Of a DNA stretch of 64,000 nucleotides, positions 16,991 through 48,063 are shown piece after piece. The translations under genes were made by a program, and so were the position numbers. The stretch lies in contig CAIXKE010000010.1 in NCBI GenBank assembly GCA_903919975.1, forward strand, positions 28,114 to 92,113. The letters run 5' to 3'. How positions within the stretch are numbered: the first letter of the stretch is position 1; each line of letters starts with the position of its first letter. Origin of the DNA: Akkermansiaceae bacterium. Lineage in GTDB: Bacteria; Verrucomicrobiota; Verrucomicrobiia; Verrucomicrobiales; Akkermansiaceae. Below the pieces are notes generated by a model that worked only from the letters and a program-made list of their open reading frames with translations, did not search any database and was not told the DNA's origin.

Positions 16991-17018
16991 GGGTGGCTTG
17001 TCTGACGACAGGCCACCC
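16991..17018 (+). terminator. Hairpin in the rpsB-tsf spacer (possible attenuator)
   Basis: GGGTGGCTTGTC-TGAC-GACAGGCCACCC (12-bp stem, one mismatch) followed by a T-rich CTTCTTTTCCC. Confidence 0.4.
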
Positions 17019-17054
17019 TTCTTTTCCCACACCACCTATCACTTTATTTCTACT

Positions 17055-17921
17055 ATGATCACTGCTGCCATTGTCAAAGAACTCCGCGACAAAACCAACG
17101 CCGGCATGATGGACTGCAAGAAAGTCCTGACTGAAACCAACGGCGACATCGAAGCGTCCATCAAGCTCCTCCGCGAGCGTGGAATCGCCAAGGCTGGTGC
17201 CAAGGCTGACCGCGCTGCTAACGAAGGCGTCATCACCGCCCGCGTCAACGCTGCTGCCACCGCAGGCATCCTGCTCGAAGTCAACTGCGAGACCGACTTT
17301 GTTTCCAAGAATGATAACTTCCAGGCGTTTGTCGCGAAAATCGCCGACACCCTTGCCGCCACCAACGCGGTGGACCACGCTGCCGCTCTTGTGGTGAGCA
17401 TGGGCGAATACAACCTCGAGGACACCGTCAAATCGAAGGTGCTCGAAGTCGGAGAAAACCTTCAGTTCCGCAAATACGTGCGTTATGACGCGGCTCCTGG
17501 CGGTGTTGTTGCCGCTTACATTCACCCTCCGGGTAAAGTGGGTGTGTTGATCGAAGTGGGCACCACCAAGCCGGAAACGGCTGGCACGGATTCCTTCAAG
17601 GAACTCATCAAGGATCTCACCCTGCACATCGCCGCCTGCGCGCCGAAGGGACTTTCCCGCGACGACATTCCGCAATCGGTGGTGGACACGGAATTGGATA
17701 TCTTCCGCGCCCGCCTTGCTGCTGAAGGCAAGCCTGCCAACATCATCGAGAACATCCTGAAGGGGCAGATCGGCAAGTTCTTTGCTGAAAGCTGCTTCCT
17801 TGAGCAAGCATTCGTGAAGGACTCCGACATCAAGGTCGCGTCTCTTCTCGAAGCGAAGGGCAAGGAACTCGGCGACACCCTCACGGTGACCCGCTTCGTG
17901 CGCTTCGGCCTCGGCGAGTAA
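17055..17921 (+). CDS. tsf: Translation elongation factor Ts
   Basis: MITAAIVKELRDKTNAGMMDCKKVLTETNGDIEASIKLLRERG (UBA-like N-terminus) and CETDFV motif. Start set at ATG 17055. Confidence 0.95.
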   Translation: MITAAIVKELRDKTNAGMMDCKKVLTETNGDIEASIKLLRERGIAKAGAKADRAANEGVITARVNAAATAGILLEVNCETDFVSKNDNFQAFVAKIADTLAATNAVDHAAALVVSMGEYNLEDTVKSKVLEVGENLQFRKYVRYDAAPGGVVAAYIHPPGKVGVLIEVGTTKPETAGTDSFKELIKDLTLHIAACAPKGLSRDDIPQSVVDTELDIFRARLAAEGKPANIIENILKGQIGKFFAESCFLEQAFVKDSDIKVASLLEAKGKELGDTLTVTRFVRFGLGE

Positions 17922-18435: not shown

Positions 18436-18619
18436 AGGGCGTAGTCACCTCGTTCAGGTCACGCTGTGCCGGGCGGTGAGTGCGTGAATGTGCCTGTGGT
18501 GGAATTTTACGAAATCTTAACAAACCTGCGAGGAACCCTTCTTCGTTTGCGGAGTTTCAATGGATGTCGCGACACTGCCAGTTGCAGTATCGTGGCAACC
18601 AACCAAGAAACCAAACATT

Positions 18620-19000
18620 ATGAAAACCTGCATTTACACACTCGGTGCGTTGGCGATCGCCGCCTCGCTGTGCTTCGGACAAGACGGACAAGCCCCCAAG
18701 GCTCCCGGCGTTCCGGATGGCTCTGGCAAAAAGCACCCGAAGCCCGAGGCTGTCTTCAAGAAGCTCGATTCCAATGGCGATTCCTCTCTGAGTCTTGACG
18801 AGTTCAAGGCTGGTCCCCGCGGGCAGAAGGATCCGACTAAGGCGGAGGAAATCTTCAAGAAGATAGATTCCGACTCCAACGGCAGCGTGAGCTTGGAAGA
18901 ATTTAAGGCCCATCGCCCTCCAAATCCTCCCGGTAAAGGCAAAGGCAAAGGCAAAGGCAAGGCTGGAGATAGCGCCCCGTCACAAGCGCCGGCCAATTGA
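18620..19000 (+). CDS. Secreted EF-hand calcium-binding protein with C-terminal (GK)n tail
   Basis: Signal peptide MKTCIYTLGALAIAASLCFG. Two canonical EF-hand loops, DSNGDSSLSLDEF and DSDSNGSVSLEEF, followed by GKGKGKGKGK. Confidence 0.75.
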   Translation: MKTCIYTLGALAIAASLCFGQDGQAPKAPGVPDGSGKKHPKPEAVFKKLDSNGDSSLSLDEFKAGPRGQKDPTKAEEIFKKIDSDSNGSVSLEEFKAHRPPNPPGKGKGKGKGKAGDSAPSQAPAN

Positions 19001-19520: not shown

Positions 19521-21014
19521 TTACGGCAAATGGGTGACGCCCATGAGGAAGCGGTCGCATTCACGTGCGGCGGCGCGGCCTTCGTTGATGGCCCAGACGA
19601 CGAGAGATTGGCCACGGCGCATGTCGCCGGCGGCGAAGACGCCGGGGAGATTGGTGGTGAATTTCCCGTGTTCGGCTTTCACGTTCGAGCGGGCGTCGGT
19701 TTCGAGGGCGAATTGTTGGACGATGTCTTGTTCCGGACCCATGAAGCCCATGGCGAGCAGGGCGATTTGAGCGGGGATGATGCGGGCGCTGCCTTCTTTT
19801 TCCTTGGGAATGAAGCGGCCTTGGTCGTTGGTCCATTCGATATCGCAGATTTCGAGGCCTGATAGATTGCCGGCCTCATCCTTGATGAAGCGTTTGGTCT
19901 GCACCAAGTATTGGCGGGGATCCTGGCCTTGGACGGCGGCGGCTTCTTCTTGGCCGTAGTCCATCTTGTAAACCTTCGGCCATTCGGGCCATGGGTTGTT
20001 AGGCGCGCGCTCAAGCGGCGGTTGCGGCATGATTTCGAGTTGGACCACGCTATTGCAGCCGTGGCGGAGGCTGGTGCCCACGCAGTCGGTGCCGGTATCA
20101 CCGCCGCCGATGACGACGACGTCTTTGCCGGTGGCATTGAGAGCGGGGTTGCTGCCATCGAAACTATGGTCGAGTTGATAGCGGGTGTTCGAGGTGAGGA
20201 AATCCATAGCGAGATAGACGCCCTTGGCATCGCGGTTTTCGACCGGGAGGTCGCGGCCGAGAGTGGCACCGCAGCAGAGGACGATCGAGTCGAAGTCATT
20301 GCGAAGTTTTTCAGCGGTCCATTCAGCGTCTTTGCCGATGTGGACGCGGGTTTTGAAAACGATGCCTTCCTCGGCAAGCAGATTGACGCGGCGTTGCACG
20401 ACTTGCTCTTTATCGAGTTTCATGTTGGGGATGCCATACATGAGGAGTCCGCCGATGCGGTCTTCGCGTTCGAAAACGGTGACGCTGTGGCCGGCTTGGT
20501 TGAGTTGGTCGGCGCAGGCGAGACCGGCCGGGCCGGAGCCGATGATGGCGACTTTTTTACCGGTGCGGGTGGCGGGGATTTTTGGGACGACCCAACCTTC
20601 TTCCCAGCCTTTATCGATGATGGCGCACTCGTTGTTTTTGATGGTAACGGGTGGCTCGATGATGCCGAGCACGCAGGAACCTTCGCAGGGAGCGGGGCAA
20701 ACGCGACCGGTGAATTCCGGGAAGTTGTTGGTTTTGTGGAGACGTTCGAGGGCTTCCTTCCAGCGACCGCGGAAGATGAGGTCGTTCCATTCGGGAATCA
20801 GATTGTTGACCGGGCAACCGCTGGCCATTCCGGCGACGATGTGGCCGGTGTGGCAGAAGGGCGTGCCGCAGTCCATGCAGCGGGCACCTTGGGCACGGCG
20901 ATCTTTATCATCGCCGTGATTCTTGAATTCCCGCCAGTTTTTGAGGCGTTCGATTGGTGCGGTTTCCGAATCGGTCTTGCGATCGATTTCCATGAATCCT
21001 GTTGGCTTGCCCAT
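19521..21014 (-). CDS. gltD: Glutamate synthase (NADPH) small subunit
   Basis: Cys clusters CMDCGTPFC and CPAPCEGSC, an FAD/NAD Rossmann [14 protein letters not shown], and [18 protein letters not shown]. Confidence 0.95.
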
Positions 21015-21021
21015 ATAATTA

Positions 21022-21034
21022 GAAATTTGAGATT
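21022..21034 (-). repeat. Copy 1 of intercistronic core motif (sense AATCTCAAATTTC) in the gltB-gltD spacer
   Basis: Plus-strand GAAATTTGAGATT. A one-mismatch second copy, GAAATTTGTGATT, lies at 21036-21048. Confidence 0.9.
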
Positions 21035-21060
21035 AGAAATTTGTGATTTGAAATGATCGA

Positions 21061-33234: not shown

Positions 33235-33243
33235 CTTAGATTT

Positions 33244-33256
33244 GAAATTTGAGATT
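33244..33256 (-). repeat. Copy 2 of intercistronic core motif (sense AATCTCAAATTTC) in the gcvP-NUDIX spacer
   Basis: Plus-strand GAAATTTGAGATT. The last T is part of the gcvP stop codon. The whole 21-nt spacer is motif sequence. Confidence 0.9.
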
Positions 33257-36084
33257 CACTGGGCTGCGGCGTAGGCCTCCACGCTGTCGCAGGTGCAGAT
33301 GAGATTGCGGTCGCCATGAACGTTGTCGATGCGGCCGATAGCTGGCCAAAACTTGTGTTGGCGGAGATAGGGCAGGGGATAAGCGGCCTGCTCGCGGGGA
33401 TACGGGTGCTGCCAGTCATTGGCGCAAATTGTTTCCGCCGGGTGCGGGGCGTTCTTGAGTGGGTTGTCGGTGGCGTCCAACTCGCCGCGGATGACGGCGG
33501 TGATTTCGCTATGGATGGAAATCATGGCGTCGCAGAAGCGGTCGAGCTCCGATTTGGATTCGGATTCGGTGGGCTCGATCATCAAAGTTCCGCCGACCGG
33601 CCAGCTCATGGTAGGAGCGTGGAAGCCGTAGTCCATCAGGCGCTTGGCGACGTCCTCGACGGTGATGCCGCTTTGGTCGGAGAGCGGGCGGACATCGATG
33701 ATGCATTCATGGGCGACGAGGCCTGCGTTGCCGGTGTAAAGAATCGGATAGAATGAAGCGAGTCGTTTGGCGATGTAGTTGGCATTCAGGATGGCGACCT
33801 CGGTGGCTTCGGTGAGTCCTTCTCCGCCCATCATGGCGATGTACATCCATGAGATGGTGTTGATGGATGCGCTGCCCCAGGGAGCCGAGCAGACGGCACC
33901 GCTGGTGATTTCCAACTCGGCATGGCCTGGCAGGAAGGGCACGAGTTGTTTTGCCACGCCGATGGGGCCGACACCGGGTCCGCCGCCGCCATGGGGGATG
34001 CAGAAGGTTTTGTGGAGATTGAGGTGGCAGACATCAGCGCCGATGAGTCCCGGGCTGGTGAGTCCGACTTGGGCGTTCATGTTCGCGCCATCCATGTAAA
34101 CTTGGCCGCCGGCATCGTGGATGATTTCACAAATCGAGCGGATCGTTTCCTCAAACACCCCGTGGGTGGATGGGTAGGTCACCATCAATGCGGCGAGGTT
34201 TTCCCGGTGCTCTTCAGTGCGTGCGGCTAGATCGTCGACATCGATGTTGCCTTTTTCATCGCATTTCACGCCGATGACTTTCATTCCGACCATTACAGCG
34301 GAGGCGGGGTTGGTGCCATGTGCGGAGACCGGGATCAGGCAGATGTTGCGGTGGGCGTCGTTGCGTGAGAGGTGATAGCGGCGGATGGCGAGCAGGCCGG
34401 CGTATTCGCCTTGTGAGCCGGCGTTCGGTTGCAGTGAGACGGCAGCGAAGCCGGTGACTTCGGCGAGCCAGTCTTCGAGGAGGCCGAGCATTTCGCGGTA
34501 GCCCGCGCTTTGGTCGGCGGGCACGAAGGGGTGAAGTGAGGCGACTTCCGGCCAGCTCAGGGGCAGCATTTCGGAAGTGGCGTTGAGCTTCATGGTGCAG
34601 GAACCGAGTGCGATCATCGACTCGTTGAGTGCGAGATCTTTCGATTCGAGGCGCTTGATATAGCGCAGCATTTCGGTTTCCGAATGATAGCTGTTGAAGA
34701 CTTTTTGCGTGAGGAAATCCGTGGTGCGTGCGACGGATGAGTGCCACGAGGATTCCTGGGTGCTGTTCATCAGCTCCGCATTGAAAAGTCGGCAGATGAT
34801 GGCGAGCTCTTCTTCGGTGGATGTTTCATCGATCGAAATGCCCAGATGATTGGGATCGATCAGGCGGAGATTGATGCCTGCATTCACGGCGAGTGCATGA
34901 ATGGTTTTTGCGGAGCCAGGGGATTTTACGGTGATAGTGTCGAAGAAAGCCCCGTTTTCAATCAGGATGCCGGCTTTGGTCAGGGAGGCGGCGAGTTTGG
35001 TTGCCTTTGCGTGAATCTCGTTGGCGATGTGCTTTAGTCCGTCCGGGCCATGATAGACGGCATACATCGAGGCCATTACGGCGAGCAGGACTTGGGCGGT
35101 GCAAATGTTAGATGTCGCCTTGTCGCGGCGGATGTGTTGCTCGCGGGTTTGGAGTGCCAAGCGGTAGGCGGGTTTGCCACGAGAATCGATGGAGACGCCG
35201 ATGAGGCGGCCGGGCATTTTGCGTTTGAGGGCGTCGGTGCAAGCCATGAACGCCGCATGTGGGCCGCCGAAGCCAATGGGCACGCCGAAGCGTTGGGAAG
35301 AGCCGATGCAGATATCCGTGCCGAAGGTTCCGGGGGCTTTCAGCACCGTGAGGGCAAGCAAGTCCGCGGCCACGATGGTGACGGCACCGGCGGCTTTGGC
35401 TTTGGCGAAGAAATTGGTGAAATCGTCGATGCGACCGCGGGTGTCCGGGTATTGCACCAACACGGCGAACACGCTGCCGTCTGCTGGGATTTCGGTGGTT
35501 TCCCAATCGCCGGTGATTACCTCGATGCCGAGGGGTTCGGCGCGGGTGATGACCACATCGAGCGTTTGCGGGTGAATGCGGTCGGAAACAAATATCGCCC
35601 GGCCTTTGGGTTTTCCGGCGAGAGCCAGACTCATCGCCTCGGCGGCAGCGGTGCCTTCATCGAGCAATGAGGCGTTGGAGACATCCAGACCGGTGAGGTC
35701 GGTGATCATCGTCTGGAAATTGAGCAAAGCCTCAAGGCGGCCTTGTGCTATTTCTGCCTGATAGGGTGTATAAGCCGTATACCAACCGGGGTTTTCGAGG
35801 ATATTTCTCAGGATGACGCCGGGCGTGTGGGTTCCATGATAGCCTTGGCCGATGAACGATTTGACCAAACGGTTTTTTCCCATGATGCCCTTCAACTTGG
35901 CTAGTGCGTCATGTTCGGATCGGGCGGTCGGCAGATTGAGGGAAGATTCCGAGCGAATACCGCCGGGCACGGCGTCGTTGATGAGGTCTGCCAGCGACGA
36001 GTATCCCGTATCGCGAAGCATTTGATCACGGTCCGGTCCGACGGGACCGAGGTGGCGGCTGCGGAAGTCAAGATGAGCGGGCAT
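33256..36084 (-). CDS. gcvP: Glycine dehydrogenase (decarboxylating), single-chain P-protein
   Basis: About 940 aa. F..RH.GP N-terminus, [12 protein letters not shown], and the PLP site [16 protein letters not shown]. Start set at ATG 36084. Confidence 0.95.
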
Positions 36085-36184
36085 TGGGATAAATTGTGAA
36101 GGGTGGTTTGTAGGAGGAAATGAACTGCCCCTCCATAGTGGAAAACGGCCCTTACGCAACACCCGGCCGCTGGAATTAGAGAAA

Positions 36185-42367: not shown

Positions 42368-42376
42368 TTGATAGGT

Positions 42377-42389
42377 GAAATTTGAGATT
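42377..42389 (-). repeat. Copy 3 of intercistronic core motif (sense AATCTCAAATTTC) in the CoA-transferase-mutA spacer
   Basis: Plus-strand GAAATTTGAGATT. A hairpin, GTTGGC-GAGAT-GCCAAC, follows at 42402-42418. Confidence 0.9.
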
Positions 42390-42427
42390 TGGAAATCAGT
42401 GGTTGGCGAGATGCCAACGCTCCTTGA

Positions 42428-47435: not shown

Positions 47436-47474
47436 AGTGTGATGTTCGGTTTAAGTGGGGAGTGGTGGGCGGGA

Positions 47475-47882
47475 TCAGTGGGCGGGTTGGCAGAACTCGG
47501 TGAGCACGCCGAAGGTGGATTTCGGGTGGAGGAAGGCGACGAGTTTGTCGCCGGCGCCTTCGAAGGGGACTTCATGGATAAGGCGGGCCCCCTTGTCTTT
47601 GGCTTGGGCGAGTTGACCAGTGATATCGTCGGTGGCGAAGGCGATGTGGTGGATGCCGCCGGAGGGGTTTTTTTCTAGAAACTTGGCGATCGGGCTGTCG
47701 GGGGAGGTGGGTTCGAGCAATTCGATGTGGACGTCACCTGCGGCGAAAAAAGCGGTGCGGACTTTTTGGGATTCGACTTCCTCACGGCCTTCGCAGGTGA
47801 GTCCGAGAATATTTTCGTAGTAGGGGATGGATTCTTCGAGGGAGTTGACGGCGATTCCCAAGTGGTCGATTTTCGTAATCAT
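47475..47882 (-). CDS. mce: Methylmalonyl-CoA epimerase (VOC/glyoxalase fold)
   Basis: MITKIDHLGIAVNSLEESIPYYENILGL and GGIHHIAF match the epimerase pattern. First gene of the propionate operon. Confidence 0.85.
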   Translation of the reverse strand: MITKIDHLGIAVNSLEESIPYYENILGLTCEGREEVESQKVRTAFFAAGDVHIELLEPTSPDSPIAKFLEKNPSGGIHHIAFATDDITGQLAQAKDKGARLIHEVPFEGAGDKLVAFLHPKSTFGVLTEFCQPAH

Positions 47883-48063
47883 TGTGAAGGGGTATGAGGC
47901 GTGTTTGAAGTGAGTATTGCAGGTAATGAGGGGCTGGCACCGCAGGAAGTTGCTAAGGCTACGCGTATTTTACCTGCTTATTTAAAGTAAGCGTATTTAG
48001 CATTCGCACGAGGTCTGTGAGAAGTCCAGACCATAGCATGATGTGCTTAATCATTCTGGGGCT

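Follow-up and report, generated by a model that had tools for sequence, protein, structure and literature searches.

We consider it highly probable that the Akkermansiaceae genome analyzed here belongs to a lineage without Shine-Dalgarno (SD) initiation, in which selection keeps the start zone of genes poor in G and single stranded for loading of the 30S subunit. In the mechanism that we propose, selection would keep G scarce in a zone that surrounds each start codon, from about -25 to +45; the removal of G would do away with G-C and G-U pairs alike, while a GC-rich genome retains its C; and the zone, thereby single stranded, would be where the 30S subunit, presumably via protein S1, loads and finds the first AUG. 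Fewer SD-like words and fewer alternative NUG starts would be side effects of the exclusion of G. The constraint would be graded, peaking in short intraoperon spacers and in abundant housekeeping genes, where it would reach as far as fully G-free leaders, some of which would be tandem copies of short G-free units. We infer that the leaders are transcribed as 5' untranslated regions, that 30S/S1 loading benefits from them, and that SD sequences are functionally ignored at initiation.

The genome is a metagenome assembly of 3.81 Mb in 112 contigs, with 57% GC and a completeness of 97.6%, and the window referred to below is the whole 64-kb stretch of it from which the analysis started. The best matches to its gcvP gene (76 to 84% identity) are in Verrucomicrobiae, Akkermansiaceae, Luteolibacter, and Haloferula genomes, and on the evidence of these closest relatives the genome is placed in the order Verrucomicrobiales; a genome search assigned 15 genomes to the same genus. 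Genes were called with a caller of our own, a dicodon log-odds model trained on long open reading frames (ORFs) with overlaps resolved greedily, which gave 3034 genes covering 87% of the genome. We used several sets of start codons. In the set of 475 unambiguous starts, the start is the first start codon of the ORF, with no rival candidate for 25 codons and a positive coding score between. This rule bars in-frame NTG and stop triplets just upstream, making G artificially low at -1, -4, -7, and so on. The further sets relied on coding potential alone, on the longest-ORF rule, or on refinement by expectation maximization (EM; 2673 starts); the signal is diluted in the noisier sets (G of 0.20), and there is partial circularity in the EM-refined set.

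All start sets agreed that the frequency of G is 0.14 to 0.20 at -22 to -1 compared with 0.24 to 0.26 at -150 to -45, and that low G persists into the gene to about +30 to +45 before reaching 0.27 to 0.28 in the gene body. At out-of-frame positions, which are free of the bias of the start rule, G around the unambiguous starts was still ~0.16. The loss of G upstream of starts was compensated largely by A. C was favored at -1 (0.57 to 0.61), -2 (0.45 to 0.49), and -4, and A at +4 (0.46); averaged over -10 to -1, C stood at 0.34 to 0.38, and over -20 to -11 at 0.30, which is not above background. No rise in G or A such as an SD would produce was seen at any position from -15 to -5, and hence no peak at -8 to -12, with either the 475 unambiguous or the 2673 EM-refined starts. 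The original prediction had set its examples against a genome with normal leader G and an AGGAGG peak; genome-wide, the leaders were instead reduced in G and showed no AGGAGG peak. The near-zero G of those examples did not generalize, since the genome-wide mean at -20 to -1 was 0.15 to 0.20. Leaders with zero G are thus the extreme tail of a graded trait and are concentrated in abundant housekeeping genes. NTG start-like triplets dropped in proportion to G, and the start sets disagreed on any extra depletion of ATG beyond the loss of G (ATG/permutation, 1.16 against 1.56 for the EM-refined set and 1.48 against 1.42 for the unambiguous set). Relative to control and antisense sequence, the words enriched in leaders were many differing G-free hexamers and the words avoided most strongly were purine rich and SD-like; relative to a mononucleotide model, k-mer enrichment returned generic A/T-rich words only.

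The lack of SD sequences, claimed for the window, was borne out across the genome. A duplex of -4.4 kcal/mol or stronger, scored against the anti-SD core, was possible in 8 to 10% of the zones from -20 to -4 versus 15 to 22% of control windows placed upstream of and inside genes. When 50 kb of Escherichia coli DNA was put through the same simplified pipeline, SD sequences were found in 74 to 79% of translation initiation regions (TIRs) versus 21 to 26% of controls, with a G peak of 0.50. The other genomes from the phylum gave the following frequencies.

Three genomes, other classes of the phylum: SD in 34-47% of TIRs, 12-31% of controls; SD enriched
G048, other family of the same class: SD in 31-35% of TIRs, 16-23% of controls; SD enriched
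G002, same genus: SD in 8-12% of TIRs, 15-19% of controls; SD-poor and G-depleted
G020, another family of the order: SD in 11-17% of TIRs, 28-30% of controls; SD-poor and G-depleted
G045, further family of the class: SD in 11-14% of TIRs, 14-20% of controls; SD-poor and G-depleted
G024, same order, 62% GC: SD in 23-29% of TIRs, 18-25% of controls; no clear enrichment, G depletion only mild

The trait is therefore shared across the lineage, the same-genus genome and the other family of the order showing the same pattern. With leaders that are G-poor and free of SD sequences, and with a pipeline that detects the SD both in E. coli and in those members of the phylum that use it, these data support the reading of initiation as SD independent.

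Avoidance of SD sequences as a separate selective force was rejected, because shuffles that kept the composition of each leader gave the same SD frequency as the real leaders (8.0% against 8.0% and 10.3% against 9.9%). G depletion therefore fully accounts for an SD frequency below chance. A strong SD-like sequence at the right spacing was present in ~1.4 to 2% of genes (1.8 to 2.1% versus 1.2 to 1.3% in shuffles), and a minority of genes may, judging from these sequences, use an SD. Thirty-seven genes (1.4%) carry such a sequence at the correct spacing; 5 of them cluster on contig C39 at 31-62 kb, and others lie on contigs that include C9, C90, and C107. The C39 cluster might be DNA from an SD-using donor. 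In rplP (contig C14, ~68261-68290), TAGGAGGA, a canonical SD, appears to lie ~9 nt before an ATG, the start being ambiguous among two ATGs and one TTG; rplP may be an exception that has an SD.

Several signatures separate selection from other causes of G loss. At fourfold degenerate codons, the frequency of third-position G was 0.19 in codons 2 to 6, 0.22 in codons 7 to 11, 0.25 in codons 12 to 16, and 0.295 in all later codons. In coding sequences (CDSs), the final 20 nt held 3.98 G when the next gene overlapped or started within 5 nt and 5.44 G otherwise (p = 5e-23). Same-strand spacers of 6-60 nt formed the G-poorest class, with 2.8 to 3.0 G per 20 nt. The depletion is also linked to expression: leader G correlates with the C-over-G bias at third codon positions, and genes for ribosomal proteins and elongation factors averaged 2.7 G at -20 to -1. 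We concluded that the G-poor start regions are driven by selection on the mRNA, and not by mutation or an amino acid effect, because the dip is anchored at the start codon, because G falls at synonymous third positions, and because the tails of CDSs are G-poor ahead of coupled genes. The companion claim, that the leaders are unstructured, was supported by folding predictions: the mean minimum free energy of 40-nt windows was predicted to be -3.5 kcal/mol at the start, -7.2 kcal/mol upstream, and -8.2 kcal/mol in the CDS, so that the start region would fold about half as stably as its flanks. Reduced structure near starts is common to most bacteria, and an unfolded zone alone is not distinctive.

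The genes and leaders of the window that bear on the original examples are the following.

17015..17054, plus strand: tsf leader within the rpsB-tsf spacer, 0 G in 40 nt
17055..17921, plus strand: tsf (EF-Ts; Pfam PF00889)
18580..18619, plus strand: leader of a gene for an EF-hand protein, 7 G in 40 nt, with a single one among the last 20 (own gene calls, Pfam)
19521..21014, minus strand: gltD, glutamate synthase small subunit (Pfam)
21015..21060, minus strand: gltD leader, formed by the gltB-gltD spacer, no G in the 40 nt that precede the ATG
33235..33255, minus strand: NUDIX leader, formed by the gcvP-NUDIX spacer of 21 nt, a single G among its last 20 nt (own gene calls, Pfam)
33256..36084, minus strand: gcvP, glycine dehydrogenase, 942 aa, ATG start
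36085..36124, minus strand: gcvP leader, -40 to -1 (sequence read, own gene calls)
42368..42407, minus strand: mutA leader, 2 G in 40 nt, 0 in the last 20 (own gene calls, Pfam)
47436..47475, minus strand: leader of a methylmalonyl-CoA carboxyltransferase gene (mmdA-like), 2 G in 40 nt (own gene calls, Pfam)
47883..47922, minus strand: methylmalonyl-CoA epimerase leader, 2 G in 40 nt (own gene calls, Pfam)

The gcvP leader is indeed the reverse complement of positions 36085 to 36124 as it had been quoted, its only G being the most distal base, and the statement that the leaders of tsf and gltD contain no G was confirmed (0 G per 40 nt before each start, at 17055 on the plus strand and 21014 on the minus strand). 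A count of 1 to 3 G in the 21 to 44 nt examined had been given for a group of five genes. It holds for mutA and the mmdA-like gene (2 each in 40 nt) and for the NUDIX gene (1 in the last 20 nt); the EF-hand gene, which starts at 18620 on the plus strand, has 1 in the last 20 nt and 7 over the full 40. The FN3 gene of that group is probably the ORF that runs off the left end of the window, with 2 G in its 40-nt leader. The corresponding counts per 40 nt, from our own gene calls with Pfam identities, were 3 for gltB, 4 for mutB, and 4 for E2. The description of the depletion as strong "across the window" was an overstatement: the mean for the 50 called genes is 7.7 G per 40 nt (median, 8), with 9 to 17 in many leaders and none in only 3. 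Nor was the expected background of roughly 30% G found, the sense-strand background being ~0.25, and the CCTCC noted in some leaders is incidental, since it occurs in 2.1 to 2.4% of TIRs and 1.7 to 2.7% of upstream control windows. A scan of the window with Rfam returned tRNA only, with no riboswitch or leader family that would account for the G-free tracts.

The extreme of the trait is found throughout the genome. Leaders of 40 nt with 0 G precede 1.0 to 2.1% of genes, versus 0 to 0.1% among upstream and coding control windows, and there are 123 G-free runs of at least 40 nt where base composition predicts ~3. Thirty-five of these runs directly adjoin a start codon and another 30 are followed, on the same strand, by a start within 150 nt; only 3 are antisense in a CDS. 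The genes behind the longest G-free leaders (20 outside the window) encode mostly abundant housekeeping proteins; they include frr (ribosome recycling factor), groEL, rplO (L15), atpG (ATP synthase gamma), two genes for bacterial microcompartment shell proteins, gnd (6PGD), zwf (G6PD), ahcY (SAH hydrolase), and pyrG (CTP synthase), and tsf is also among the genes with the longest such leaders. A restriction S subunit gene and a Cas3-like helicase gene are exceptions among the 20. Some of the leaders are built of repeats. The longest consists of ~16 tandem TCTCCAA units, about 111 to 113 nt in all, running into the frr ATG (contig C34, 19188-19300, minus strand, outside the window), and at least 8 other contigs also carry this heptamer ahead of genes. 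The gltB-gltD spacer of the window is made of 7/14-nt repeat units (a Tandem Repeats Finder array at C10 49131-49167), and intergenic tandem arrays most often have a period of 7. Forty-seven intergenic tandem arrays are G-free on one strand; 33 are in sense orientation to a gene starting within 150 nt downstream, and 4 have only an opposite-oriented start nearby. TCTCCAATCTCCAA occurs 23 times, 21 of them in sense orientation within 200 nt upstream of a start.

The gcvP leader illustrates how little of the sequence itself is retained. It is not conserved among relatives, some of whose leaders are G rich and possibly structured; the closest orthologues have unrelated leader sequences, yet their proximal 20 nt are G-poor. 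Upstream of gcvP in three relatives (L009, L012, and L013; Akkermansiaceae, Luteolibacter, and Prosthecobacter), the ATG is immediately preceded by a G-rich segment that they have in common, GGGTTGCAGG...CCTGTTGCATGAGC...GGCGAAATC. It may form the terminal part of a structured regulatory leader, for example, the platform of a glycine riboswitch. This segment is absent from the gcvP leader of the present genome.

G-poor leaders could in principle be a passive product of strand-biased mutation or of a general C-over-G skew of transcripts, with no selection linked to initiation. Sense strands are in fact C skewed overall (mean gene GC skew, -0.05, with C exceeding G in two thirds of genes), and both leader G (rho 0.355, with C-over-G bias at third codon positions) and G in a control window at -140 to -101 (rho 0.28, with CDS GC3 skew) track the composition of the CDS, so that a regional component exists. 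Moreover, the GC skew of the plus strand of the window is positive (0.05 to 0.27) over its whole length, even where genes are on the plus strand, which implies that a replication-strand skew comes on top of the C excess seen at the level of transcripts. A passive skew, however, does not account for a dip that is anchored at the start codon with recovery on both sides, for a fall in synonymous third-position G that is confined to codons 2 to 16, for CDS tails that are G-poor only before a coupled gene, or for the strong preference of G-free arrays for the sense orientation. These position-specific profiles largely refute a passive origin, which we regard as extremely improbable.

A function other than ribosome loading would leave partly similar traces. 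The accepted hallmark of Rho utilization (rut) sites is unstructured RNA that is rich in C and poor in G, and the genome encodes two Rho homologues (C57 26637-26849 and C1 33541-33756, in open frames of 654 and 667 aa); the leaders could therefore be mainly rut-like sites at which Rho loads to abort transcription of untranslated messages, with any effect on ribosome loading secondary. The start zones are G-poor and predicted to be unstructured, as rut sites are, and C is raised near starts, but a rut site is expected to be C rich over ~60 to 90 nt and here the enrichment is confined to -10 to -1, the signal otherwise being a loss of G made up largely by A. The zone of ~70 nt, centered on the start codon and including early codons, fits the ribosome loading region, and the trait occurs in the same lineages that lack SD sequences, which ties it to initiation. 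We thus find it quite unlikely that Rho loading is the main role. The recurrence of heptamer units on many contigs, the predominance of period 7, the frr leader, and the orientation of TCTCCAATCTCCAA raise the alternative that leaders carry a specific element (TCTCCAA or AATCTCA, for example) that pairs with rRNA or is recognized by a factor of its own, G poverty being a by-product. Arrays of this kind, however, are found at tens of genes only, whereas the dip in G extends across about 2700 genes; the top hexamers each occur in <4% of leaders and are mutually unrelated and G-free; and the leaders of gcvP and tsf are G-free without repeats, that of gcvP differing in sequence from those of its orthologues. 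We consider a dedicated element very unlikely. A single leader motif was rejected as a candidate, since enrichment against control and antisense sequence gave many unrelated words, and the absence of a dominant word indicates that the constraint is compositional.

The 16S rRNA gene was not found in the assembly, and we examined the 16S genes of relatives instead. All 10, including 4 same-genus sequences, terminate in GGATCACCTCCTTTCT; the inspection of the 16S 3' end that the original prediction had proposed thus found the anti-SD intact in 10 of 10 relatives, and by extension from them, the canonical CCUCC is very likely present at the 16S 3' end in this genome. The anti-SD appears to keep at least one use, since prfB (contig C111, locus L176, ~806-895) contains a perfect SD inside the gene, as part of the classic site for programmed +1 frameshifting (AGGAGG TAT CTT TGA C). 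In Bacteroidia, exemplified by Flavobacterium johnsoniae, initiation is likewise SD independent (Baez 2019, PMC6847099; Jha 2021, PMC7797042; McNutt 2023, PMC9976891), and the anti-SD is sequestered by the C-terminal helix of bS6 (Trp100, Arg103, Lys107), Phe50 and Asn56 of bS18, and Tyr54 of bS21 at the 16S 3' end (PMC7797042). Judging from the protein sequences, these features that hide the anti-SD seem to be absent here. The bS6 protein is ~95 aa long and its alignment to solved bS6 chains stops at residue 86, leaving no C-terminal helix extension of the sort that pockets the 16S tail in Bacteroidia. In bS18, residues 48-91 of 7jil_w correspond to residues 37-80 of the query, and by coordinate offset alone Phe50 corresponds to Leu39 and Asn56 to Thr45. 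The alignment of bS21 to 7jil_z reaches residue 53 only, just short of Tyr54. The leader of rpsU is G-poor and has no upstream SD, GAGGAG lying directly after the ATG, in contrast to the strong rpsU SD (for autoregulation by bS21) in many Flavobacteriales.

In several other respects, the two groups are alike: both have no SD at starts, an intact anti-SD (here, in the 16S genes of relatives), an unstructured TIR (here, by prediction), and a retained SD in prfB, which, as far as the available part of that report goes, Bacteroidia also keep for stimulation of frameshifting (PMC10798248). A mild rise in A at -13/-14 (0.34 to 0.35) is reminiscent of A-12/A-13 of Bacteroidia. The leaders themselves differ. 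Those of Bacteroidia are A rich, with A-3 and A-6, whereas here A is 0.25 to 0.27 at -3 and 0.27 to 0.29 at -6 and the distinguishing features are the loss of G and the preference for C at -1, -2, and -4; a further difference is that AUG shows no clear depletion here apart from that expected with less G.

That Verrucomicrobiales lack SD sequences is already known, having been published in 2024, and the present finding is mostly a measured extension of it. In the available portions of McNutt et al. 2024, SD frequencies in this order are below chance in 7 of 7 species, Bacteroidia, Verrucomicrobiales, and Cyanobiaceae are listed as SD-less lineages with a retained anti-SD, and the ribosomal basis of the SD lack in Verrucomicrobiales is stated to be unknown (PMC10798248); a second report, likewise as far as it is available, lists Akkermansia as SD scarce with CCUCC conserved (PMC10783764). 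Our genome, from the same order, agrees with the portions at hand in having SD sequences at or below chance and a canonical anti-SD in the 16S genes of its relatives (PMC10798248). Those portions of the two papers report SD frequency only, and not mRNA features that replace the SD (PMC10798248, PMC10783764). What is new here is the profile of G exclusion between -25 and +45, proof that SD depletion follows from G depletion, the signatures at synonymous sites and in coupled genes, the extreme G-free and repeat-built leaders, and the contrast with the adenine-based Bacteroidia. The apparently missing Bacteroidia sequestration features and the internal SD of prfB sharpen the question raised by McNutt et al. 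2024 of how these ribosomes handle an intact anti-SD.

A more speculative picture, which we offer tentatively and think possible but doubtful, is that Verrucomicrobiales reached SD independence separately from Bacteroidia, with no anti-SD pocket, with a rule of no G from -25 to +45 replacing the adenine code, and with leaders of tandem G-free units that could grow or shrink and so adjust how strongly abundant proteins are translated. The absence of a Bacteroidia-type pocket is suggested by the missing C-terminal helix of bS6 and the nonmatching bS18 residues.

There are precedents for parts of the leader architecture. The omega leader of tobacco mosaic virus, one of several SD-independent, S1-dependent translational enhancers, is a viral element that has been studied in plants and in E. 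coli; it is tens of nucleotides long, contains nearly no G, is rich in C, A, and U, consists partly of short direct repeats, and is unstructured. It resembles the leaders described here in being nearly devoid of G, unstructured, and partly repeat built, with the role of S1 being presumed in our case, and differs in that omega is a viral element with other repeat units whereas here the property is genome-wide in a bacterial lineage. TAACTGA heptamer repeats occur near starts in marine Beggiatoaceae and in some Cyanobacteria and Bacteroidetes (PMC4679880). They share with our arrays the tandem 7-nt intergenic units near start codons and the orientation with the downstream gene; TAACTGA, however, contains G, whereas the units here are different and G-free and form a minority subset of a wider compositional trait.

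These properties have practical consequences. Expression constructs engineered for Akkermansia and related bacteria should rely on a G-free leader, with C at -1 and -2, in place of an SD. In annotation, SD-based start models fail in Verrucomicrobiales, and the longest-ORF rule over-extends genes through G-free leaders because these lack TAG and TGA stops as well as ATG, GTG, and TTG starts. The longest mechanical ORF for gcvP, for example, runs 26 codons further upstream across the G-free leader to a GTG at 36162, adding 26 false codons. Several long G-free runs that were classed as lying inside CDSs are probably cases in which the start was miscalled by such over-extension.
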